Assembly (NCBI GenBank): GCA_021773835.1
Contig: JAJFJQ010000035.1
Coordinates: forward strand, 183,213-247,212
Direction: 5' to 3'
Length of the DNA stretch: 64,000 nucleotides
From: Gammaproteobacteria bacterium
GTDB taxonomy: Bacteria; Pseudomonadota; Gammaproteobacteria; Ga0077536
Part shown: in pieces, positions 2,126 through 32,047 of the stretch
Layout: every line of letters begins with the position of its first letter
How positions within the stretch are numbered: position 1 is the stretch's first letter
Position numbers and translations under genes: made by a program
The notes under the pieces: model-generated
The model's input: only the letters and a program-made list of their open reading frames with translations
Told to the model about the DNA's origin: nothing
Databases searched by the model: none

Positions 2126-2965
2126 GTGTATAAGGGCCGAGTTATAGTAACGGATACAGGCGAAGATGCGGTGACAAATTCAACTTTAAGCGGCGCAACA
2201 GGTACTCCGGGCGAACAGACCAATGGCGTTCGTATCGTCTTGGTGGGCACGACCCACCCTGGCAACATCGGCTCCAGCGCGAGGGCGATGAAGGTAATGG
2301 GCTTCGACGAACTGTATCTGGTTGCGCCACGGAACTTCCCAGCTGCGGCCGCAACCGCAATGGCATCTGGTGCTGATGACCTATTGATGTCCGCAAATGT
2401 GGTGGATTCCGTCGAGGAGGCAGTCGCCGGATGCGCCATGGTTTTTGGTACGACGGCACGCGATCGGCATCTGCAATGGCCAATTTTATCGCCTAGTGCT
2501 GCCGCTACCGAAGTCGAAGCCGCCCTTGTCTATGGCCCTATTGCGCTCGTATTCGGGCGCGAACAGGCCGGTTTGACCAACACTGAGCTCGACTTATGCC
2601 AACGCGTGATACGTATTCCAACTGATCCTAACTTCAATTCACTTAATCTCGCGCAGGCGGTCCAAATATGCGTCTACGAATTGCGTAAGAAAATTGTCAG
2701 CGAATCGAAGCACAGCGTTGGCGGTGGCGATAGAGATCGGATGGCCACCGCAGTGGAACTAGACCTGCTGTATCACCATTTAATCGAGTCGATGGCCAAG
2801 GTCGGTTATTTCGACCCAACCAATCCGCGGTTATTGGAGCGTCGTTTGCGACGCTTACTCAACGGTTCCAACGTGCGCCAAAGTGAAGCCCAAATTTTGC
2901 GTGGTTATCTGACGGCGATCGACCGCAAGCTGGCCGCGAATGCGAAGCTGCCAGGAAGTGAGTAG
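2126..2965 (+). CDS. trmJ: tRNA (cytidine/uridine-2'-O)-methyltransferase TrmJ (start may be GTG 2171)
   Basis: Motifs RIVLVGTTHPGNIGSSARAMKVMG, FGREQAGLTN and SLNLAQAV; divergent from suhB as is usual. Confidence 0.92.
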   Translation: MYKGRVIVTDTGEDAVTNSTLSGATGTPGEQTNGVRIVLVGTTHPGNIGSSARAMKVMGFDELYLVAPRNFPAAAATAMASGADDLLMSANVVDSVEEAVAGCAMVFGTTARDRHLQWPILSPSAAATEVEAALVYGPIALVFGREQAGLTNTELDLCQRVIRIPTDPNFNSLNLAQAVQICVYELRKKIVSESKHSVGGGDRDRMATAVELDLLYHHLIESMAKVGYFDPTNPRLLERRLRRLLNGSNVRQSEAQILRGYLTAIDRKLAANAKLPGSE

Positions 2966-2984
2966 GATTGCGAAGCCGGCTGAA

Positions 2985-4037
2985 TCAGACTAGCAAACCG
3001 CTATAGCTCACTTCGCCATTATTACCGGCGCCAACCGTTCCGATTTCGAATACGACTTCCCCAAGTTCGCTTAACACGGCGGCGACCTCGGCCGATTGCG
3101 CGTGTGGCACGATAACGGCCATCCCGATCCCGCAGTTAAAGGTTCGTAGTAGCTCCTGGTGTTCGATCGGGCCGGCTTTCGCTAACAACTCGAATATCGC
3201 CGGCAGCGTCCAACTATCGAGGTCAATCTTTACACTGGCCCCGGTGGGCATAACGCGCGGTAGATTTTCCGTAATACCACCGCCGGTAATGTGTGCCAAA
3301 CCGTGGATTTCGAACTCGTGCAAAATTTGTAGCAGCGGTTTTACATATATCCGTGTCGGCTCCATCAAGACATCAACGAGAGAGCGACCATCGATCTGGG
3401 TTGTGGCTAAGCTTGGTTGGTCAGCCAGTACTCGACGAACGAGCGAGTAACCGTTCGAATGGAGCCCACTCGATGCGATTCCGAGGATACGGTCTCCTAT
3501 TGCGACCGTGCTACCGTCCAGAATATTCTCGCGCTCTGCCGCACCGACACAAAAACCGGCCAGATCATAGTCACTGTCGGCATACATATCTGGCATTTCG
3601 GCGGTTTCGCCGCCCAATAGCGCTGCACCGGCGATCTCGCATCCGCGAGCAATGCCCTCTATAACCTGACGGGCTGTGGCCACGTCAAGCTTACCGCTGG
3701 CAAAATAGTCAAGAAAAAAAAGCGGCTCTGCGCCCTGCACAATGATGTCGTTGACGCACATTGCGACTAAGTCGATTCCCACTGTTGTATGCCGGGCGCT
3801 CTCCACCGCGAGTTTGAGTTTTGTTCCGACACCGTCGGTCGCGGAAACCAGCACGGGATCGCGGTAGCCGCAGTCCATCAGCGCGAACAGGCCACCGAAA
3901 CCGCCAAGGTCACTCGCAACCCCCGGACGATGGGTACGTTTCACTGCGGGCTTGATTTGCTCGACGAGGCTGGTGCCGCGCTCAATATCAACCCCGGCGT
4001 CCCGATAGGAGACGGGTTTTTTAATTTTTTCGGACAT
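2985..4037 (-). CDS. purM: Phosphoribosylformylglycinamidine cyclo-ligase
   Basis: Motifs SYRDAGVDI, ATDGVGTKL, SSGLHSNGYSL and FNCGIGM; start moved to ATG 4037 (MSEKIKK). Confidence 0.97.
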   Translation of the reverse strand: MSEKIKKPVSYRDAGVDIERGTSLVEQIKPAVKRTHRPGVASDLGGFGGLFALMDCGYRDPVLVSATDGVGTKLKLAVESARHTTVGIDLVAMCVNDIIVQGAEPLFFLDYFASGKLDVATARQVIEGIARGCEIAGAALLGGETAEMPDMYADSDYDLAGFCVGAAERENILDGSTVAIGDRILGIASSGLHSNGYSLVRRVLADQPSLATTQIDGRSLVDVLMEPTRIYVKPLLQILHEFEIHGLAHITGGGITENLPRVMPTGASVKIDLDSWTLPAIFELLAKAGPIEHQELLRTFNCGIGMAVIVPHAQSAEVAAVLSELGEVVFEIGTVGAGNNGEVSYSGLLV

Positions 4038-23675: not shown

Positions 23676-24986
23676 ATGGGACGGCAGAAAAGGCGCGAGC
23701 CGTATGTCATCAATATTGAAAATTTGTCACATGAGGGTCGTGGAATTGGGCGCCTTAACGGCAAAACTGTATTTGTCAGTGGCGCATTGCCGCAAGAGAC
23801 TGTACTAGCCCGAACAACTAAACGACGCGGTAGTTTTGATGAGGCAATTGCGCTTGAGATCCAGGTCGAAAGCGCCGATCGCATCGCGCCAAAATGTCCT
23901 CATGCAGGTGTTTGCGGCGGTTGTTCACTACAGCATTTGCCAGCTGAAAAACAAATTGAACACAAACAATCGGTTCTTTTCGAATTGCTTGCTCATCACG
24001 CAGGAGTCACCCAGTTTGTGCAGTTCCCGGCGCTCCTCGGTCCACAGTGGGGCTACCGACGCAAGGCGCGCCTTGGGGTAAAGTTCGTGCCAAAGAAGGG
24101 TGGGGCCTTAGTCGGATTCAGAGAAAAGGCTGCGCCCTACATCGCGGATATTAACGGTTGCGCCGTGCTGGATCCGGTCGTCGGGGGGAGGCTACTGGAG
24201 TTACGCCAGCTCATCGATGGATTGTCGATCCGGGATCGGATCCCTCAAATCGAAGTTGCTATCGGGGACAGCACCGCGGCCCTCGTATTTCGACATTTGG
24301 ATCCGTTTAACGACGCTGACATCGCCGCCTTCGCACAATTTCAAGAAAGTTCCGGGATCGGTATCTATTTACAACCGGGCGCTGAGAATTCGATGCATCG
24401 ACTAAACGACGCGACGGCGCTACTCAATTACAGTGTTGATGGCCTTCATTTCGACTTCTTGGCAACCGATTTCACCCAGGTCAATGGCGCAATGAACCGC
24501 GCTATGGTCAATTTGGTCCTGGAGCAATTGCAATTAAGCTCATCGGATCGTGTATTGGATTTGTTTTGCGGCCTTGGAAATTTTTCTCTACCGCTGGCGC
24601 GACCCGCCGCGCACGTGGTGGGAATTGAAGGTAGTGAAGATTTGGTATGTCGGGCACGGGAAAACGCGCTCAAGAACAACATCGATAATGTCAGTTTTCG
24701 CCGGGCGGATCTGGCTAACGCCGATGACGTAGCGAAGATAGACATGCGCGGTGTCACCAAATTGCTGCTTGATCCGCCGCGTACCGGGGCCGACGAGATA
24801 GTCAAAGGGCTCGACCTTCGGGACTTGAACCGCATCGTTTATGTCTCATGTAATCCGGTAACATTGGCCCGAGATACAAAAAGCATTCTCTCCAGCGGCG
24901 ATTTCGAACTTATTGGTGCTGGTGTTATGGACATGTTCCCGCATACGTCTCATGTTGAATCAATCGCGGTATTCGAAAATCGGTAA
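23676..24986 (+). CDS. rlmD: 23S rRNA (uracil1939-C5)-methyltransferase
   Basis: TRAM domain, CPHAGVCGGC Fe-S motif, DLFCGLGNF, DPPRTG, YVSCNP and DMFPHT.HVES. Confidence 0.96.
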   Translation: MGRQKRREPYVINIENLSHEGRGIGRLNGKTVFVSGALPQETVLARTTKRRGSFDEAIALEIQVESADRIAPKCPHAGVCGGCSLQHLPAEKQIEHKQSVLFELLAHHAGVTQFVQFPALLGPQWGYRRKARLGVKFVPKKGGALVGFREKAAPYIADINGCAVLDPVVGGRLLELRQLIDGLSIRDRIPQIEVAIGDSTAALVFRHLDPFNDADIAAFAQFQESSGIGIYLQPGAENSMHRLNDATALLNYSVDGLHFDFLATDFTQVNGAMNRAMVNLVLEQLQLSSSDRVLDLFCGLGNFSLPLARPAAHVVGIEGSEDLVCRARENALKNNIDNVSFRRADLANADDVAKIDMRGVTKLLLDPPRTGADEIVKGLDLRDLNRIVYVSCNPVTLARDTKSILSSGDFELIGAGVMDMFPHTSHVESIAVFENR

Positions 24987-26466
24987 GCGTTACGTAATTC
25001 TCATTGTTCTGGTTGCCGTAATCGGAGGATGTGGTCAAGCGAATGACGCTGCAATACGATTCGGATTAGCGACTCCTCCGGTCACACTCGATCCCCGCTA
25101 TGCTACCGATGCGACCTCGTATCGAATAATGCGGTTGATTTATCAGGCGCTAATCGATTTTGACGATAGCCATCGTGCAATACCAGCGCTAGCCACCTGG
25201 GAGGCGATTTCACCGTTACATTACCGATTCCTACTGCAGGACTCCCAACGTTTTCATGACGGCAGTACACTCGATAGCGACGACGTCATTGCGACCTATC
25301 GATCTGTGCTCGATCCGCGAACGGCGTCTCCACATCGGGGATCCCTAGCCAATATCGAATCGATCGAGGCGCCGACGCCGCTCACGGTCGATTTCTATCT
25401 CAAACAAGCCGATCCATTGTTTCCTGGCCTGCTTGTGCTTGGCATTATGCCGGCGGAGAAGGTGCGCGATACCTACGCTAGCGTGGAGCAACCGGTTGGT
25501 TCTGGACCATTTGCCGTGGAGGGGGTGCCAAAGGAGGCGCGATTACGGCTTCGTCGCCGCGCCGATGGACAATTGGTCGATTTCATTACGATTCGAGACG
25601 CGACCGTGCGTGCATTAAAAATACTGCATGGTGAGATCGATTTGATGCAAGGTTCGATGACACCTGAATTAGTCGACTGGTTGCACGGCAATAAGCATAT
25701 CGTGTCGGATCACCGACCAGGGACAACGTTTACTTACCTTGGATTCAATCTCAACGATCCATCTGTTGGTGACCTGCGGGTGCGTCGCGCAATCGCACAC
25801 GCGATCGATAGACGGTCACTAACGAAATATATGTTTGGCGATCGAGCTCGCCTCGCGCACGGAATTTTCACACCGAAGCATTGGGCTGGACATTCAAAAT
25901 TGCAAGCCGTTGATTTCGATCCTGCGCGTGCGCGTGAGCTACTCGCGGATTTGGGGTACAGCGACTCGAGACCGCTGCAATTAAGCTACAAGACGTCGAG
26001 CGACCATTTCAGGCTGCGCATTGCGACGGCGATTCAGGATCAGTTGGCCGATGTAGGGATCGAGCTTACGATATCGAGTTACGATTGGGGTACATTCTAC
26101 GCCGATGTAAAGGCCGGCAGGTTTCAACTGTACAGCCTCTCATGGGTCGGTCTTAAGCAGCCGGATATCTTTCGATATGCGTTCCATAGTTCATCTGTAC
26201 CACCGGAAGGTGCTAATCGAGGGCGCTACCACAGCGCCGCTGTCGATCAGATGATCGAGGTGGCTGAGTCGACAAAGGATCTGGCGACTCGTGCTGCTTT
26301 TTATCGGAATATTCAGCGACAGCTTCTGGTCGATTTACCCTACGTTCCACTATGGTATGAAGACACGACATTGATCGTGCGTGATTCCATTGTCGGATAT
26401 GACACCGGACTCGACGGTTATTATGATGGATTGGCGAAGACTCACAGGGTTACGACTAATGACTAA
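24952..26466 (+). CDS. Peptide/nickel ABC transporter substrate-binding protein (family 5), predicted lipoprotein
   Basis: Lipobox-like IGGC, TLDPR, FHDGS.L...DV, P.GSGPF and VRRAIAHAIDR. Confidence 0.9.
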   Translation: MLNQSRYSKIGKRYVILIVLVAVIGGCGQANDAAIRFGLATPPVTLDPRYATDATSYRIMRLIYQALIDFDDSHRAIPALATWEAISPLHYRFLLQDSQRFHDGSTLDSDDVIATYRSVLDPRTASPHRGSLANIESIEAPTPLTVDFYLKQADPLFPGLLVLGIMPAEKVRDTYASVEQPVGSGPFAVEGVPKEARLRLRRRADGQLVDFITIRDATVRALKILHGEIDLMQGSMTPELVDWLHGNKHIVSDHRPGTTFTYLGFNLNDPSVGDLRVRRAIAHAIDRRSLTKYMFGDRARLAHGIFTPKHWAGHSKLQAVDFDPARARELLADLGYSDSRPLQLSYKTSSDHFRLRIATAIQDQLADVGIELTISSYDWGTFYADVKAGRFQLYSLSWVGLKQPDIFRYAFHSSSVPPEGANRGRYHSAAVDQMIEVAESTKDLATRAAFYRNIQRQLLVDLPYVPLWYEDTTLIVRDSIVGYDTGLDGYYDGLAKTHRVTTND

Positions 26467-26944
26467 CCGTTTTGTCGAAATTTGTTTGTCAGAACAAACG
26501 CTAAACCTGTACGAACGGGACCGTGTCTTCCTGACGTTTCAGGTCTCTACCGCTGCCAACGGACCCGGCGAGCAAATGGACAGCGAGTGCACCCCGCGCG
26601 GGCGCCACGTGATCGATGAGAAAATTGGCCATGGCTGCGCTCCCAACACCGTATTTGTCGGTCGAGTTGCAACTGGCGAAATCTACGATGAAAAACTTGG
26701 TCGAATGCATCCTCGCAGAGATTGGATCCTGACTCGGATCCTGTGGTTACGCGGGCTTGAAGATGGCCGCAACAACGGCGGCAATGTCGATACCAAAGCG
26801 CGCTATATCTACATTCATGGATCGCCCGACAGTACGGCGATGGGTATCCCAGGGTCTCACGGCTGCATTCGCTTACACAATCACGATGTCACCCAGTTGT
26901 TTGATCTCGTTGAGGTTGGGACGCTAGTGAATGTCCTCGATTAA
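26459..26944 (+). CDS. YkuD / L,D-transpeptidase-family protein without a signal peptide
   Basis: Motifs TPRG.H, WILTRILWL.G.E and YIYIHGSP.....G.PGSHGCIRL (His/Cys intact); ATG 26459 overlaps the stop of the binding-protein gene. Confidence 0.9.
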   Translation: MTNRFVEICLSEQTLNLYERDRVFLTFQVSTAANGPGEQMDSECTPRGRHVIDEKIGHGCAPNTVFVGRVATGEIYDEKLGRMHPRRDWILTRILWLRGLEDGRNNGGNVDTKARYIYIHGSPDSTAMGIPGSHGCIRLHNHDVTQLFDLVEVGTLVNVLD

Positions 26945-27040
26945 GCGTTTTCTGATTTTAACATGGTTAACCATAACCTATTGATTAATAATAAAATATG
27001 TCGTTTCCGTAATCTGCTTGGAAAAAAAATTCTGCACGCG

Positions 27041-27068
27041 TGTCAACCGAAAGTCGATTGATGCGTTG
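27041..27068 (+). promoter_or_regulatory. Putative ECF-sigma promoter
   Basis: TGTCAACC...ATGCGTTG, i.e. AAC-N16-CGT, about 50 nt upstream of ATG 27116. Confidence 0.6.
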
Positions 27069-27115
27069 TTAGGGATGGAGAGATACAAAACTTCCTAATA
27101 ACGCAGGAGAACGAC

Positions 27116-27808
27116 ATGAAATCAACATCAATCATTTTGCTCGGTTTCGTCGCGGTGGCGTGTTTTCAGTCCCAAGCAATCTATGCGGATCCGGGCGACG
27201 TAATCGATGAACGTCTTGACCGGCGCGGAGACCGCATAGATGAGCGGCTGGATGCAAAGGGTGACCGGATCGAGCAGCGGCTAGACAATAAGGGTGATCG
27301 GATTGAAGACCGCTTTGATCGCAGGGCGGATCGTGCGCGGGATGCCGGAAAAGATGGCCTCGCCGATCGTCTGGAAGCGAAGGGTAATCGCATAGACAAT
27401 CGTCTGGATCGCAAGGGCGATCGAATTGAGAATCGATTGGACCGTCGTGGCGATCGGATTGATCGTCGTCTGGACCGCAAGGGTGATCGGCTCGAGCGGC
27501 GTTACGACAACCACCACGGCAACAACGATCAGGGCAACTATAATAGACCGGGCTACGACCGTGATCGCGTGGCTAATCGCATCGACAAGCGCGGCGACCG
27601 TATTGAACGGCGCGCGGACAGGCGCGGTGATCGGGTTAACCGTCGCTTGGATCGACGCTCCGATAGGGCGCTTGCCAGAGGTAACGATCGTCGCGCAGGA
27701 CGTCTTGACCGTGCCGGCGACCGCGCAAATCGACGTATCGACCGACGCGGTAAGCAGGCCAACAAGCGTCACGACCGAAGAGCGAACCGCGTTGCAAATC
27801 GGCGCTGA
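27116..27808 (+). CDS. Secreted Arg/Asp-rich 11-residue repeat protein
   Basis: AGGAG SD, Sec signal peptide (..QAIYA|DP), then repeats of G-D-R-I-D/E-x-R-L-D-R-K/R. Confidence 0.85.
   Translation: MKSTSIILLGFVAVACFQSQAIYADPGDVIDERLDRRGDRIDERLDAKGDRIEQRLDNKGDRIEDRFDRRADRARDAGKDGLADRLEAKGNRIDNRLDRKGDRIENRLDRRGDRIDRRLDRKGDRLERRYDNHHGNNDQGNYNRPGYDRDRVANRIDKRGDRIERRADRRGDRVNRRLDRRSDRALARGNDRRAGRLDRAGDRANRRIDRRGKQANKRHDRRANRVANRR
27194..27781 (+). repeat. Coding 33-nt tandem repeat units (about 13 recognisable hendecads in two modules)
   Basis: GDVIDERLDRR / GDRIDERLDAK / GDRIEQRLDNK / GDRIEDRFDRR ... GDRANRRIDRR; degenerate at the DNA level. Confidence 0.85.
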
Positions 27809-27892
27809 GGTGGCACCAATAGACGCAGGTGGGTATTGGATCCGGCATGTATAGTTGGTGATTGACCGGCGTCGGCCGACTGGAGGAACGGT

Positions 27893-28453
27893 CTGGATAA
27901 TTCGCAGGCGCTTAACAAATTCTTGGCAGGTATCGAGCGCCGCGCATTTCGGATGTCAGAAATTGCAACCGGAAATCGGGAGGATGCGCTCGATATCGTT
28001 CAAGATGCGATGATTAAGCTAGTCGACAAATATTCGGACCGCGGGCCTGACGATTGGGCACCGTTGTTCTACCGTATACTGCAGAGCCGGATATTGGATT
28101 GGCATCGGCGCACGACAGTCCGGCGGCGAGTTATGGGCTTCTTTCGTTCCGACAGTACCGAGGATACCGCAGGCGCCGACATTGAGGCTTATCCGGATAA
28201 CGAAAGTCGGCAGCCCGAGCGTCAATCGGAAAACGACCAGTTAATGCAGAGACTCGAGCCAGCGTTGGCTGCACTCCCACTGCGCCAGCAACAAGCGTTT
28301 TTAATGCGGATGTGGGAAGGGTTCGATGTGCGGCAAACCGCAACCGCGATGAGATGTTCCGAAGGAAGTGTCAAGACGCATTATTCACGTGCGCTTAAAG
28401 CGTTAAGAATGACTCTGCAAGAAGCTAACGGAGCAGACGATGAATCGAAGTAA
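27893..28453 (+). CDS. ECF RNA polymerase sigma factor (probable CTG start at 27893; track start 27923)
   Basis: Region 2 DALDIVQDAMIKL; region 4 LPLRQQQAFLMR...ETA-like...SEGSVKTHYSRA; GGAGG SD at 27882-27886. Confidence 0.9.
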   Translation: MDNSQALNKFLAGIERRAFRMSEIATGNREDALDIVQDAMIKLVDKYSDRGPDDWAPLFYRILQSRILDWHRRTTVRRRVMGFFRSDSTEDTAGADIEAYPDNESRQPERQSENDQLMQRLEPALAALPLRQQQAFLMRMWEGFDVRQTATAMRCSEGSVKTHYSRALKALRMTLQEANGADDESK

Positions 28454-28781
28454 CGAGACGCTCGTCGAGCAATGGCGCGAAGTGCTCGATACCGACGCGG
28501 AAAACATCGATGCGCGAACAGTTGCTCGACTGGCGCAGATTCGACGCAATGCAGTTTCGCGGCGCGACGTCCGGTCTACGCTACCACGATTCGCCCCTGC
28601 GATTGCTTTCGCGACGTCGGCGATTATGCTCGCGATCTTGTTACGCGTACCTGACGGATCGATACATGTATTAGACCCCGACGTTGTAATTTTCGAAATC
28701 GTTCTAGCTGACAGTGACCTCGAACTGATCGAAGATCTAGAGTTCTACCGCTGGCTGGATGCCAATGGAAACGCGGGGTAG
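28440..28781 (+). CDS. Putative membrane anti-sigma factor (DUF3619-like)
   Basis: ARLAQIRRNA helix, one TM segment, C-terminal DLELIEDLEFYRWL; overlaps the sigma stop. Confidence 0.75.
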   Translation: MNRSNETLVEQWREVLDTDAENIDARTVARLAQIRRNAVSRRDVRSTLPRFAPAIAFATSAIMLAILLRVPDGSIHVLDPDVVIFEIVLADSDLELIEDLEFYRWLDANGNAG

Positions 28782-28992
28782 TCGCTCATGGGCGCTTTTC
28801 TGTGTCGCTGTTTTTTTCTTGGCCAGCGCTGCTGCAGAGGAGTTTCCGGAGCTAGAGTTGCTCGAGTATCTGGCCGACTGGCAGGACGCGGATGGCGCCG
28901 TACTCGATCCAAGAATGTTCGACGACGACCCGCGTGCAGAGCCCGTGCCGGCGTCCGAAGACATGTCGAGAGTTCCCGATGCGTTTGAGTAG
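28765..28992 (+). CDS. Small exported acidic protein
   Basis: Signal peptide ending AAA|EE; mature part acidic (PELELLEYLADWQDADG..LDP); overlaps both neighbours. Confidence 0.65.
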   Translation: METRGSRSWALFCVAVFFLASAAAEEFPELELLEYLADWQDADGAVLDPRMFDDDPRAEPVPASEDMSRVPDAFE

Positions 28993-29608
28993 CGCAATCT
29001 TGTTCGTAGTGATCAGTTACGTCGGCTCTTGTCTGGCCGCTGACCCCAAATCGATCCCGTGGGCGGACCTCGGCGGCGAGGAGCAAAGGATCCTTGGGAA
29101 AGCGCAACCGAACTGGGACGACTACTCGGTAGAGCGTCAGCAAAAGTTGCTCGCCGGCGCACGAAAATGGAAGTCGCTTTCACACCCAGAGCGACAGACG
29201 ATGGAACGCAATTTGGCCAAGCTCAAGCAGATGGAGCCGGCGCGTCGAAAACAGGTATTACAGCGTTTGCAGCGATTTAAGTCATTGCCGGCCAAAGAGC
29301 GCGCGCGACTACGTGAATCCTTCCGCGCTTACAAGCGACTACCTACCGAGCGACGCCAGGAATTGCGACAGAAATGGCGCAAGAAAACCCCGGCAGAACG
29401 TCAAAGGTTTCGGAGCGAATGGAAACGTAAGCGATTAGATCGCCGCCGCGATGTCAATAATCAACGTAGAGATAGACCCGGTGTAATCCGTGATCGCCAA
29501 CGCCCCAATGATACTCCGCGCAAACGTTGGCAGCGGCAGGGGAAGCGGAGTGATTCTAAGGCGCGGCAGCAGCGTAATCGGGCACGAGGCGGGGTCCGGA
29601 AAGACTAA
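28979..29608 (+). CDS. DUF3106-like exported basic helical-repeat protein
   Basis: Signal peptide; five 18-residue W/F/Y-x-x-L-x-x-x-(E/R)-R/Q repeats then 15-mers; basic low-complexity tail. Confidence 0.78.
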   Translation: MRLSSAILFVVISYVGSCLAADPKSIPWADLGGEEQRILGKAQPNWDDYSVERQQKLLAGARKWKSLSHPERQTMERNLAKLKQMEPARRKQVLQRLQRFKSLPAKERARLRESFRAYKRLPTERRQELRQKWRKKTPAERQRFRSEWKRKRLDRRRDVNNQRRDRPGVIRDRQRPNDTPRKRWQRQGKRSDSKARQQRNRARGGVRKD

Positions 29609-29643
29609 TTACGATTAGGTCCCGTGATTCGGTTCAATTGAGA

Positions 29644-30147
29644 TTACGGATCCGTGCCGCCAGACGATTGTTGCACCAGGTGCTTAGCAAAGCGTTTTAT
29701 TTGCAGATCGTATAGCGCCAGCTCGCCGCCGGTTTTTATCGCCGCAATTGCGAGTCTGCCGACTAGCATGAGGAGCAAGATCCCAATCACCCACGCAACG
29801 AAATACGATAGGCGAAAACCCAATGCGTCATTCACCTCGCGGAGGCGAGCGCTACTCGCCAATCTTGCTTCCTCGGAGTCGCTAGATGAATCTGCAGCTC
29901 GGGGCTTTTCAGCCGCCGAGAGTGCCTTGTCCAGGTTGGAGCCTTTTTCGATCGCGCGCGCGAGCCGCTCGATGTTCTGCGGTTGCTGATAGAGGGACCA
30001 AGCTTCGTTAATTACCTTTAACCCGATCCATAAGCCGACGAACATCAAGATAAATCCGACGATTCGTACAATGAGCTGGGTTATTTGTGTGGTGTTGTCT
30101 AACCAACGATTCTCTTGGTCAACATCGTCGAATTGATAGCGGGCCAC
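29644..30147 (-). CDS. Hypothetical two-TM membrane protein
   Basis: 167-aa ORF with two clear hydrophobic helices flanking a soluble loop; fills the gap between the ECF cassette and the permeases. Confidence 0.7.
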   Translation of the reverse strand: MARYQFDDVDQENRWLDNTTQITQLIVRIVGFILMFVGLWIGLKVINEAWSLYQQPQNIERLARAIEKGSNLDKALSAAEKPRAADSSSDSEEARLASSARLREVNDALGFRLSYFVAWVIGILLLMLVGRLAIAAIKTGGELALYDLQIKRFAKHLVQQSSGGTDP

Positions 30148-30317
30148 TGATTATTCCCTGTGGAGTTGAAAAAAGAGCGGGCCAACTCTATCACAGCTAT
30201 AGGCGATCGACTCAAGAAATGACGTCGTCGGTGGTAGTCCAAGCTTAGTTTTGCTGGGCATGGCTGTTCGAGATAAGCTCTACGGGTGCTGCCTGACGAA
30301 TCGTTGCTCAAATCACC

Positions 30318-31238
30318 ATGGGATCACTAGCTGCTCATAGACTTGTTACCGCAGCGATCGTGCTTCTCGGTGTCTCGTCGATTACCTTTTTCCTACTGCA
30401 TTTAGTTCCAGGTGATCCGGTGGAGGTGATGTTGGGCGAATCGGCAAATATCGCTGATCGCGCACAACTTCGCGCCGAGCTTGGGCTCGATGCTCCGCTC
30501 CTTCAACAGTGGATGACGTTTCACAAAGGCTTGCTGACATTCGACTTTGGCAGCTCGCTGTATTCGAAAAAACCGATCGCGGCAGTGCTCGCAGAACGTA
30601 TCCCGTGGACGTTAATTCTCGCGGTTGCCAGTCTCTGCATCGCGATTCTTATCGCAGTCCCTTTGGGTGTGTTGGCTGCGTTGAGACCAAATACGTTGTG
30701 GGATTCGGTCGCCGCGACTGTGTCTCTACTCGGCGTATCGATTCCGAATTTTCTGCTCGGGCCGCTGCTGATCATTATATTTTCTATTGGACTCGGCTGG
30801 TTCCCCGTGAGTGGAACGGAGCGCATCACCTCGATCGTGCTACCCGCATTGACGCTCGGCGCATCATTGGCTGCGATACTGTCGCGCATGATTCGGGCGT
30901 CGTTGCTTGAGGTGTTGTCGGAAGAATATATCGTCTCGGCCCGGGCGCGAGGCCTTGGCGCGCTAGTGGTCGTCGGCTATCACGCGATGCCGAACGCCGC
31001 GCTTCCGATTTTAACGATTTTAGGTCTCCAACTCGGTGCGTTGTTAGGTGGCGCCGTAATTACCGAGATGATTTTCGCGTGGCCGGGAGTCGGGCAATTG
31101 ACAATTGAGGCGATACAGCGTCGTGATTATCCTTTGGTGCAGGCATGCGTGTTGGTTATTAGTTTTGCCTACGTAGCGGTCAACACGCTCACTGATCTCG
31201 TCTATGCCCGCGTTGATCCACGGATCAGGATGCAGTAG
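30318..31238 (+). CDS. Peptide/nickel ABC transporter permease (DppB/OppB-like)
   Basis: PGDPVE.MLG, EAA loop EEYIVSARARGL and E.IFAWPGVG......I.RRDYP.VQ. Confidence 0.93.
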   Translation: MGSLAAHRLVTAAIVLLGVSSITFFLLHLVPGDPVEVMLGESANIADRAQLRAELGLDAPLLQQWMTFHKGLLTFDFGSSLYSKKPIAAVLAERIPWTLILAVASLCIAILIAVPLGVLAALRPNTLWDSVAATVSLLGVSIPNFLLGPLLIIIFSIGLGWFPVSGTERITSIVLPALTLGASLAAILSRMIRASLLEVLSEEYIVSARARGLGALVVVGYHAMPNAALPILTILGLQLGALLGGAVITEMIFAWPGVGQLTIEAIQRRDYPLVQACVLVISFAYVAVNTLTDLVYARVDPRIRMQ

Positions 31239-32047
31239 TGCGGGTCGCGACAATAATGAGCATAGTGGTTGTCGGCTCATGGCTGACCGTCGCACTTCTA
31301 TCACCATTTGTCGTCGGAGAAGTCAACGCGATCAATCTCGAGCGCTTGTTCTCCGGACCGTCGAGCAGCGCGATATTCGGTTTTGATGATCTAGGCCGTG
31401 ACATCGGGCCGAGGATCCTCCGGGGTGCGACGGTATCTTGTACGGTTGCATTTTTTGTCGTCACCATATCAGTAGTGATCGGTACGACGTTCGGGATTTT
31501 TATTGCCTGGTACGGTGGCTTGGTCGATCTCATCGGTGTGCGTGTGATGGACGTGTTTCTTGCATTTCCGGGTATTTTACTGGCGATTGCATTGGCCGCG
31601 GTCCTAGGTCCAGGGGTCGAGAACGTTTTGATCGCTTTGTCGATTGTCAGCTGGGTGGGCTTTGCCCGCCTGAGCCGTGCGCAAACATTGAGTATTAAGC
31701 ATCGTGACCACGTCACCGTCGCTCAAGCGCTGGGTACGCCGGTATTCACCATATGTCGCCGTCACATTCTTCCCTTGATAGTGGCACCAATTATCGTTGA
31801 GGCGACGTTTGCCATTGCCGCTGTGATCATTGCGGAAGCTGGGTTGTCATTCCTCGGTCTGGGGGTGCAACCGCCGACCCCATCTTGGGGAGCGATGATT
31901 AAAGAAGGTACGCGATACCTATTGATCGCCCCGCATATGGCTCTTGGTCCGGGCTTGGCGCTGTTTTCTATCGTGATCGCCATCAACGCGCTCGGTGACC
32001 GACTCCGAGATAGCTTGCAAATCAAGCGCGGCGCGTTCCAAAATTGA
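31238..32047 (+). CDS. Peptide/nickel ABC transporter permease (DppC/OppC-like)
   Basis: FGFDDLGRD, D.FLAFPGILLAI, EAGLSFLGLGVQPP.PSWG and GDRLRD. Confidence 0.93.
   Translation: MRVATIMSIVVVGSWLTVALLSPFVVGEVNAINLERLFSGPSSSAIFGFDDLGRDIGPRILRGATVSCTVAFFVVTISVVIGTTFGIFIAWYGGLVDLIGVRVMDVFLAFPGILLAIALAAVLGPGVENVLIALSIVSWVGFARLSRAQTLSIKHRDHVTVAQALGTPVFTICRRHILPLIVAPIIVEATFAIAAVIIAEAGLSFLGLGVQPPTPSWGAMIKEGTRYLLIAPHMALGPGLALFSIVIAINALGDRLRDSLQIKRGAFQN

Follow-up and report, generated by a model that had tools for sequence, protein, structure and literature searches.

A secreted hendecad-repeat protein as the putative principal output of an ECF37-type sigma factor system in Gammaproteobacteria

What is a secreted protein for in which nearly every second residue is arginine or aspartate, and what controls its gene? 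We addressed this question for a hendecad-repeat gene in a 64,000-nucleotide (nt) stretch of contig JAJFJQ010000035.1 (assembly GCA_021773835.1, Gammaproteobacteria bacterium); this whole stretch is called the window hereafter. The gene lies between an ECF37-type promoter and the gene for an ECF (extracytoplasmic function) sigma factor of the same type. In comparisons of sequence, promoter, position, and phylogenetic profile link the repeat gene to ECF37. We think it probable, though far from certain, that the ECF37 system has the repeat protein as its principal exported output and that this protein would act through charge-based binding in the periplasm. An earlier description made from the letters of the DNA (the sequence-only reading) had recognized a secreted protein of 11-residue repeats; it had overlooked the ECF37 promoter and the cassette of sigma factor, DUF3619, and DUF3106 genes that follows the repeat gene.

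Promoter, sigma cassette, and distribution

We compared the window with 80 related loci from named genomes and metagenome-assembled genomes, using the window protein as the single query. Coordinates of the features are given in Table 1. The promoter in the window is located 49-75 nt ahead of the ATG of the repeat gene, and its extended form, TGTCAACC-N15-GCGTTGT, spans 27041-27069. When dyads were counted without bias over the 200 nt that precede the repeat genes, GTCAA-N17-CGTT emerged from 50 of 78 regions. In 67 of 79 loci as well as in the window, the strict motif GTC[AG][AT]C-N15-17-CGT lies 56-146 nt ahead of the start codon, against a background of 1.6% of 300-nt windows. Several of the loci that missed the strict motif carried variants of it (for example, TTGTAGACAAA...GCGTTTTGA in Methylotenera, and a GTAGAC variant in five Methylotenera loci); the motif was conserved in about 85-93% of the related loci. 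The motif equals the consensus of ECF37 (RpoR) in Cupriavidus metallidurans, for which a 2026 study gives a -35 element xGTCAAC and a -10 element xxCGTTAT (PMC13492112, Table 4).

The motif was kept in 18 of the 22 loci in which no downstream ECF gene was detected (4 of the 22 are too short downstream to judge). In 50 loci with adjacent genes, no second copy separates the repeat gene from the sigma gene. Of 18 genomes whose sigma gene lacks a repeat gene beside it, 16 have the motif ahead of that sigma gene, at 86-621 nt (mostly 86-250) from the start of the tblastn match. Five genomes with a distant repeat gene have two copies, one belonging to the repeat gene (62-68 nt upstream of it) and one to the sigma gene. 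Taken together, the results from orphan, adjacent, sigma-only, and two-copy loci suggest that the motif is the sigma factor's own promoter and that the repeat gene is a direct target. The site in the window is the only full-form copy in the 6.1-Mb source genome, in which the repeat gene is single-copy. Genome-wide, TGTCAAC-N15-17-CGTT occurred 7 times in the source genome and 7 times in the control, which is chance level; at the six other sites the full form is missing, or the site is implausibly close to open reading frames (ORFs). Because the motif is at chance level elsewhere in the source genome, we do not claim a wider regulon.

In tblastn searches with the sigma factor (27923-28453), a homologue was found directly downstream of the repeat gene in 58 of the 80 loci (about 76 of which have enough flank), followed by DUF3619 and DUF3106. 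In these 58 loci, the match to the sigma factor typically starts 40-185 nt past the repeat gene; DUF3106 is conserved in 44 loci. The loci that have no adjacent sigma gene comprise 4 that are too short in flank and about 18 true orphans. The spacer that leads from the repeat gene to the sigma gene does not generally contain a terminator or attenuator (mean folding z -0.24, with 6 of 51 loci below -2), and an Rfam search of 26500-30300 returned nothing.

The probable start of the sigma gene is unusual. Its frame opens after a TGA at 27863, and no ATG, GTG, or TTG lies upstream of the conserved N-terminus GLDNSQALNKFLAG; the match to NF006550 begins at 27896, and the first canonical start is a TTG at 27923. 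We consider the CTG at 27893, which follows GGAGGA (27882-27887) by 5 nt, the probable start. Starts for which CTG is the only candidate occur in 11 of 77 sigma genes of the family, mostly with a Shine-Dalgarno sequence (among them L001, L003, L007, L052, L080, L092, L099, and L100), and suggest a deliberately weak translation of the sigma factor.

For the phylogenetic profile, we sampled 300 genomes from the class of the source; in GTDB, this class takes in the former Betaproteobacteria. Of these genomes, 28 have the repeat family and 72 the sigma family. The sigma factor accompanies the repeat family in 23 of the 28, with the two genes adjacent in 17 of the 23 genomes and distant in 6. Among the five repeat-bearing genomes that lack the sigma factor, four have weak hits to the repeat family (E between 1e-11 and 1e-17), and the fifth has a gene at a contig edge. 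Conversely, the repeat family is absent from 49 of the 72 sigma-bearing genomes. The repeat family is thus nested within genomes that contain ECF37, yet two thirds of these genomes do without it, which points to an accessory output and not to a core part of the signaling machinery.

The slot between promoter and sigma gene can hold other secreted proteins. In L099 (G161, about 2750-3154 on the minus strand), it is occupied by a protein with three EF-hands (EF-hand_1, E 8.7e-9), and in L101 (G164) by a protein with TQ repeats that is rich in Gly and Met. Four loci (L003, L005, L006, and L015) have an additional secreted protein of 244-260 amino acids (aa) after the hendecad gene, with 'MSPEER' repeats and borderline matches to DUF3106 and DUF1104.

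The cassette downstream of the sigma gene is itself divided by charge. The DUF3619-like protein ends in an acidic tail (...DLELIEDLEFYRWLD in the window, ...ELELxEDLEFYxWL in the conserved form), and the small acidic protein at 28759-28992 has a related LEFLxxW motif. In other loci, small acidic ORFs of the same kind are found between DUF3619 and DUF3106; there, the acidic protein has a net charge of -6 to -16 and DUF3106 one of +11 to +41. The cassette pairs very acidic periplasmic pieces (the DUF3619 tail and the 77-aa protein) with two strongly basic secreted proteins, the hendecad protein and DUF3106. That the acidic pieces have a LEF/LxxW motif in common is a hint of partners in competition and of a possible charge-based partner switch. 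Literature searches on DUF3619 and DUF3106 (PF12279, PF11304, PRK09047) found nothing relevant.

This pairing could be read differently, with the repeat protein as a feedback modulator that binds the acidic DUF3619 tail, the small acidic protein, or both, and so tunes the release of the sigma factor. CpxP regulates CpxA, RseB regulates RseA, and ZraP regulates ZraS, and small periplasmic proteins encoded beside envelope sensors are, in the well-known cases, often regulators. These precedents favor modulation, as do the position of the repeat gene at the head of the sigma operon and the charges of the possible partners, an acidic tail and a secreted protein at -6 to -16 vs a repeat protein at +22. 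However, the sigma-bearing genomes in which the family is missing show that it is not needed for signaling, and copies of the repeat gene lie far from the sigma gene in 6 of 23 genomes and at about 18 loci. A range of 104 to more than 270 aa with variable modules would also be unusual for a specific docking partner, and unrelated secreted proteins (EF-hand, TQ/GM-rich) can fill the same slot in the operon. We regard feedback modulation as unlikely.

Table 1. Positions of the features discussed, in window coordinates
Feature	Position	Strand	Description and evidence
ECF37-type promoter	27041..27067	+	-35 TGTCAACC 27041-27048, 15-nt spacer, -10 GCGTT 27063-27067
Shine-Dalgarno AGGAG	27105..27109	+	6 nt ahead of ATG; sequence
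Repeat-protein gene	27116..27808	+	230 aa plus stop; codon-position test, homologues
Signal peptide (aa 1-24), MKSTSIILLGFVAVACFQSQAIYA	27116..27187	+	predicted from sequence; n-h-c regions equivalent in 79/80 homologues
Module A arm 1 (aa 25-69)	27188..27322	+	four hendecads, net -4; predicted helix 26-76, pLDDT >90
Module A turn element RADRARDAGKDGLADRLE (aa 70-87)	27323..27376	+	net 0; family-conserved putative hairpin turn; predicted break at 77-79
Module A arm 2 (aa 88-133)	27377..27514	+	four hendecads, net +6; predicted helix 80-139
Asn/Gly/Tyr/His linker (aa 134-148)	27515..27559	+	net -1; predicted disordered, pLDDT <50 at residues 142-148
Module B (aa 149-230)	27560..27805	+	degenerate copy of module A; A/B alignment, A3 profile
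Parts of module B			arm 1b 149-180 (+7), turn RSDRALARGNDRRAGRL 181-197 (+4), arm 2b 198-230 (+10)
Spacer between repeat and sigma genes	27809..27892	+	no second ECF37 promoter
ECF sigma factor, ECF37-type (NF006550/PRK09047)	27893..28453	+	NCBIfam 224 bits vs 173 cut-off
DUF3619-like single-pass membrane protein, putative anti-sigma	28440..28781	+	PF12279 21.8 bits, cut-off 22.2; conserved downstream
77-aa protein, very acidic, secreted or anchored, ELELLEYLADW	28759..28992	+	ORF; no Pfam match
DUF3106 secreted protein, strongly basic C-terminus	28979..29608 (also 28892 start)	+	PF11304 E 1.4e-21

The wider neighborhood of the cassette is a peptide ABC-transporter set, with a family-5 solute-binding protein at 24913-26466 and permeases at 30318-32047. 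Three elements break up this set: the ECF37 cassette, preceded by a gene for a YkuD/ElsL-like L,D-carboxypeptidase (26381-26944) and followed by one for a 167-aa membrane protein (29644-30147, minus strand). The same order of transporter and cassette is found in L001 and L015, and also in L100, where the hendecad gene is lacking. A perfect 12-bp palindrome, ATGGTTAACCAT, occurs at 26963-26974, in AT-rich sequence that separates the YkuD-like gene from the ECF37 promoter; it may serve as an operator or belong to a terminator.

Among the orphan repeat genes, those of L008, L021, L013, L046, L056, and L079 are located near OmpA-like lipoproteins with thrombospondin-type Ca-binding repeats, and the Steroidobacteraceae-type orphans L058, L060, L064, and L077 adjoin an alkaline-phosphatase-like gene. 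We dropped these orphan neighborhoods (OmpA-TSP3, alkaline phosphatase, DUF1508-like) as a clue to function because they are lineage-specific.

The repeat gene and its family

The mature part of the window protein (residues 25-230, 206 aa) contains 60 Arg and 39 Asp residues (48.1%), identical to the figures counted before by hand, together with 19 Gly, 9 Lys, and 8 Glu; 56% of its residues are charged. Its computed properties are a net charge of +22, an isoelectric point of 11.3, a grand average of hydropathicity (GRAVY) of -2.05, a glycine content of 9.2%, and a mass of 24.7 kDa. Every 11 residues there is a GDR or GNR anchor, position 4 is I/V, and position 8 is L/F/Y; the hydrophobic and Asp signals have their periodicity peak at 11/3, or 3.67 residues. 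At the DNA level, Tandem Repeats Finder reported a 33-nt period at 27366-27490. Module A (25-133) and module B (149-230) align without gaps over 80 residues with a BLOSUM62 score of 202, compared to 65 +/- 10 for shuffles, and this alignment takes in both of the segments that had been called inserts. Net charges rise from -4 in the first arm to +10 in the last (Table 1). The register, internal duplication, and gradient from a near-neutral N-terminal to a basic C-terminal module described in the sequence-only reading were thus all recovered, as was its signal peptide, which has counterparts in 79 of 80 homologues and predicts export.

The repeat gene begins with ATG. It differs from its L001 orthologue at 45, 42, and 140 first, second, and third codon positions, respectively, with 99 synonymous and 65 non-synonymous codon changes. 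The dominance of third-position differences identifies 27116-27808 as the selected frame, and in 79 of 80 homologous loci a signal peptide opens in the same frame. These comparisons indicate that the gene is real and under purifying selection.

Two long ORFs overlap the gene in other frames, one of 163 aa at 27281-27772 on the minus strand and one of 142 aa at 27426-27854 on the plus strand. An exact look-up in a collection of 15 billion proteins found neither the repeat protein nor either of these two ORFs. Both observations could be taken to mean that the repeat ORF is a by-product of a DNA repeat, or that the true gene is on the other strand or in another frame. Substitutions dominated by the third codon position, a signal peptide, a Shine-Dalgarno sequence, an ATG, a conserved promoter upstream, and hundreds of homologues that keep the frame together with their signal peptides speak against such an artefact, to which we assign a negligible probability. 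It is the two alternative ORFs that are by-products of the repeat. Since the exact protein is absent from the collection, the gene may be unannotated or mis-called in the source genome; repeats that open long ORFs on the other strand or in other frames make a gene of this kind prone to mis-annotation.

Cleavage of the signal peptide is likely after A21 or A24. The signal peptide also contains a weak lipobox-like VAVAC, within FVAVAC at 27146-27163 (aa 11-16). Compared with the pattern [LVI][ASTVI][GAS]C, the window protein reads A-V-A-C16, with Ala at -3, and the L001 protein (FVIVAC) reads I-V-A-C and fits. The cysteine is absent from most family members, and lipidation would be lineage-specific if the lipobox is real.

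No Pfam or NCBIfam model reached its cut-off with the repeat protein. The top Pfam match was Apolipoprotein (PF01442; 28.4 bits, E 1.6e-6, residues 30-128, cut-off 90 bits), and there was a weak similarity to the Phasin profile. The LEA_4 (PF02987) and LTXXQ (PF07813) profiles had no match at E<=10, the string LTXXQ does not occur in the sequence, no PspA-family Pfam match was found, and neither Pfam nor NCBIfam gave a metal-binding motif or family match. A sequence search of the PDB with the family profile returned nothing at E<=1. We therefore found no characterized family in Pfam, NCBIfam, or the PDB to which the protein belongs. Of the likeness to group 3 late embryogenesis abundant (LEA) proteins and apolipoproteins that had been suggested before, the 11/3 periodicity held up, whereas family membership did not (LEA_4 none at E<=10; apolipoprotein 28 vs 90 bits).

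Homologues of the repeat protein are numerous. A word-indexed search gave 153 at E<=1e-3. An exhaustive search of 1.84 billion cluster representatives with the profile from alignment A3 matched 950, 384, and 35 of them at E<=1e-3, 1e-10, and 1e-30, respectively. The search for homologues and their neighbors that the sequence-only reading had suggested was thus productive, with 384 representatives at E<=1e-10 and the ECF sigma cassette downstream. The family ranges over Gamma- and Betaproteobacteria, and carriers include Microbulbifer, Methylotenera, Methylophilus, Cycloclasticus, Methylophaga, Simiduia, Lysobacter, Woeseiaceae, and Steroidobacteraceae. All family matches are labeled 'hypothetical', and some homologues have a precomputed PF01442 label.

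The canonical member has 104-180 aa and consists of a signal peptide, 3-5 hendecads of the form LDxKGDRIExR, a turn, another 3-5 hendecads, and a basic tail. The turn element is conserved as RADxAxxxGxxxxAxxL[DE] with an invariant Gly (alignments A1 and A3). Within each repeat, Gly1 is invariant, Asp9 is conserved at 97-98%, Arg3 at 91-93%, Ile4 at about 80%, and Leu8 at about 85%. Members differ in length, from 104 to more than 270 aa, and in the number of modules. Like its closest relatives (L001-L006 and L015), the window protein has two modules; the A3 profile matches its modules separately (module A, 4.7e-50; module B, 8.2e-19), and its Asn/Gly/Tyr/His linker is missing from the alignment of single-module homologues. 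From these alignments and profile matches, we assign the window protein to an unnamed hendecad hairpin family. The family is widespread, and no paper on it was found in the literature searched, where the repeat peptide strings also gave nothing relevant.

Some candidates at the edge of the family were rejected. The giant proteins P0145 (1444 aa) and P0157 (585 aa) are other 11-mer repeat proteins in the weak tail of the profile search. They contain similar 11-mer runs (ERVDRAGDFIE about 13 times in P0157, and ITxRGDxxAxR in P0145), so the xDRxGDxIExR hendecad may be a more general building block. An RcnB label (JGI, P0033) was dropped as a likely low-complexity artefact, since there was no RcnB Pfam match. 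The idea that RGD or KGD in the repeats binds integrins was dropped as well, because the bacteria that carry the gene are free-living and environmental and because the motif belongs to the structural repeat.

Hairpin architecture and charge layout

AlphaFold2 (AF2) modeled the window protein from 63 sequences with a predicted local distance difference test score (pLDDT) of 83.5. The prediction for the monomer was helical, as expected from the earlier reading, with a hairpin of helices 26-76 and 80-139 at pLDDT above 90. The signal peptide forms a separate short helix (4-16), and module B is drawn as a single long helix with a dip in pLDDT at 180-200. The model of a canonical member (L007, alignment A3) reached a pLDDT of 87.3 and a predicted TM-score of 0.65, with helices at 22-78 and 82-141. 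Foldseek searches of the PDB with the two models returned no significant neighbor, only generic hairpins at E >0.3 (best E values 0.34-0.47).

Two features of the family bear on the fold. In 52 members, the lengths of the two arms co-vary (r = 0.81; arm 1 ranges from 32 to 65 residues), and the more basic arm is arm 2 in every one of the 52, with mean net charges of -1.2 for arm 1 and +7.5 for arm 2. Matched lengths and the charge rule support the hairpin independently of AF2, and we propose that the family folds as a helical hairpin with a more acidic or neutral arm 1 and a basic arm 2. The conserved turn and the matched arms also change how two earlier observations are to be understood: what had been described as a non-repeat insert is the conserved hairpin turn that defines the family, and the charge gradient is a family rule. 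We infer that module B is a second hairpin, which its nearly equal arms of 32 and 33 residues would fit.

Placed on an 11/3 helical wheel, the repeat can be read geometrically as having three faces, set roughly 120 degrees from one another: a narrow seam (G1/I4/L8), an acidic stripe (D2/E-D5/D9), and a basic stripe (R3/R7/x10/K-R11).

This layout bears on whether the protein might be a protectant like the group 3 LEA proteins or the hydrophilins, which would be disordered in solution, become helical upon drying, osmotic upshift, or contact with lipids, and shield membranes or proteins. The hydrophilin criteria that Garay-Arroyo et al. reportedly set in 2000 are a glycine content above about 6% and a high mean hydrophilicity; the mature protein, with its GRAVY of -2.05 and 9.2% Gly, falls within this group, which is a compositional class and not a homology family. 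The 11-residue periodicity points in the same direction, as do the weak matches to the Phasin profile and to Apolipoprotein (E 1.6e-6), and by the logic of the sequence the like charges at i/i+3/i+4 should destabilize a lone helix. However, an invariant Gly, near-invariant D9 and R3, a turn at the mid-point, and matched arms argue for a defined, folded hairpin. The hydrophobic face is only 2-3 residues wide, LEA_4 has no match and the apolipoprotein score stays at 28 vs a cut-off of 90, and many of the hosts are aquatic or marine. We consider a protectant of this type rather improbable.

Proposed role and comparison with known systems

The mechanism that we favor for the repeat protein as the exported output of ECF37 starts from gene order. 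With the repeat gene placed between the sigma factor's own promoter and the sigma operon, activation of ECF37 by release of the sigma factor would lead to transcription of the repeat gene first and of the sigma operon by read-through. A strong Shine-Dalgarno sequence and an ATG on the repeat gene vs a probable CTG on the sigma gene would then yield far more effector than sigma factor. The pre-protein would be exported by Sec and cleaved near Ala21 or Ala24, and the mature 24.7-kDa protein would form two helical hairpins joined by the flexible Asn/Gly/Tyr linker. Within a hairpin, the neutral or acidic arm 1 and the basic arm 2 may zip together through the seam and through charge attraction. 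The surplus charge of +22 and the exposed stripes could provide multivalent binding of anionic envelope material. As for the ligand, we purely infer the candidates: lipopolysaccharide (LPS) or phospholipid head groups, periplasmic glucans, or exposed acidic segments of proteins. The outcome would be protection or buffering of the envelope, as Spy, CpxP, and ZraP provide in their own stress systems, by likeness of role and not by ancestry. An envelope role is supported by the control through an ECF sigma factor, a class that signals from the envelope, and by analogy a protective or buffering function appears most likely. The specific roles that the sequence-only reading had put forward (a protectant of membranes or LPS, a chaperone, or a binder of polyanions) are all candidates.

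Several points weigh against this interpretation. AF2 can be over-confident for repetitive helices, and it modeled module B straight. In an antiparallel hairpin, like stripes would be set opposite each other across the seam, and the proposed pairing geometry is putative; if like stripes do face each other, attraction between whole arms or bridging counter-ions may outweigh pairing from stripe to stripe. The seam of hydrophobic residues lacks the width that classical membrane insertion requires. The acidic periplasmic tails in the cassette would fit a regulatory partner equally well. Beyond the promoter consensus, homology of the C. metallidurans RpoR operon to the window cassette is putative, and the study of that bacterium observed no RpoR-dependent autoregulation under its conditions and assigned no function (PMC13492112).

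Parallel pairing between molecules would be charge-complementary, which leaves room for self-assembly. As one form of the exported-output reading, the family might represent a novel self-assembling material of the periplasm, in which the hairpins zip sideways, acidic to basic face, into a lattice, gel, or condensate that is sensitive to salt, cations, or pH; we hold this to be doubtful. Equally doubtful is the corollary that ECF37 would use it to stiffen or re-buffer the periplasm, with the number of modules (one, two, or more hairpins in a chain) setting the valency.

The facing stripes have a further possible use, since like charges could be bridged by counter-ions: the protein might be an ion buffer of the periplasm, with Asp stripes that chelate Ca2+, Mg2+, or other metals, or Arg stripes that sequester phosphate or polyanions. 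The three-EF-hand protein (L099) and the Gly/Met-rich protein (L101) in the same slot are compatible with this, as is the proximity of 6 of 19 orphan loci to OmpA-like proteins with Ca-binding thrombospondin-type repeats. Yet this evidence from neighborhoods is weak and bound to lineages, no known metal-binding motif or family was matched in Pfam or NCBIfam, and Arg always matches Asp and would compete with cations. We deem ion buffering very unlikely.

Returning to the repeat protein as the charge-binding output of ECF37, what is new here is the promoter and cassette context that sequence comparison gives to the hendecad hairpin family. ECF37-type sigma factors occur in about a quarter of the sampled genomes (72 of 300), in Gamma- and Betaproteobacteria. 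The literature searched on ECF37/RpoR consists of C. metallidurans papers only, which give no function, target, signal, or phenotype; with a promoter and a nearly exclusive target gene, both conserved, an opaque regulator becomes a testable system. The repeat protein itself is an extreme sequence design, 56% charged, with fixed Gly, Asp, and Arg positions in an 11/3 helix and an acidic arm matched to a basic one, and the PDB holds no structural precedent for it. Should it turn out to be a chaperone, a self-assembling scaffold, or an LPS binder, it would represent a new type of envelope-stress effector and a natural model for charge-patterned helical hairpins.

With LEA_4, the apolipoproteins A-I, A-IV, and E, and alpha-synuclein, the repeat protein has in common 11-residue repeats that are read as an 11/3 helix. 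In contrast to LEA_4 and the apolipoproteins, its hydrophobic face contains only G, I, and L, its acidic and basic stripes do not follow the class-A pattern, and the family has an invariant Gly in each repeat and a central hairpin turn. PspA, Vipp1, and Snf7 (ESCRT-III) were the top Foldseek neighbors of both models and share the long antiparallel helical hairpins. They are stress-induced, polymerizing, membrane-protecting proteins of the cytoplasm. However, these matches are not significant (E 0.3-2, TM <=0.42), and there is no sequence similarity. Membership in LTXXQ, LEA_4, Apolipoprotein, and PspA/ESCRT-III was rejected, with no match or a match below the cut-off in each test.

The likeness to the RpoR-RsrA-RsrB system of ECF37 lies in the promoter (-35 GTCAAC, -10 CGTT(A/G)T) and in a sigma gene with two conserved downstream genes; it concerns the regulator and not the repeat protein, and in the literature searched we came across no repeat protein described for the C. 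metallidurans locus.

The remaining comparison is with CpxP, Spy, and ZraP. These members of PF07813 are small periplasmic helical stress proteins of E. coli. They differ from the window protein in that the latter has no LTXXQ match at E<=10 and no PDB sequence match, is under an ECF sigma factor and not a two-component system, and contains hendecads with segregated Asp and Arg stripes in a variable number of modules. Nevertheless, they too are small, exported by Sec, and all-helical, with a hairpin fold and a charged or basic surface, and each is encoded beside an envelope-stress regulator of which it is the strongest target. By this analogy, the repeat protein would work most like the small periplasmic proteins of the stress regulons.

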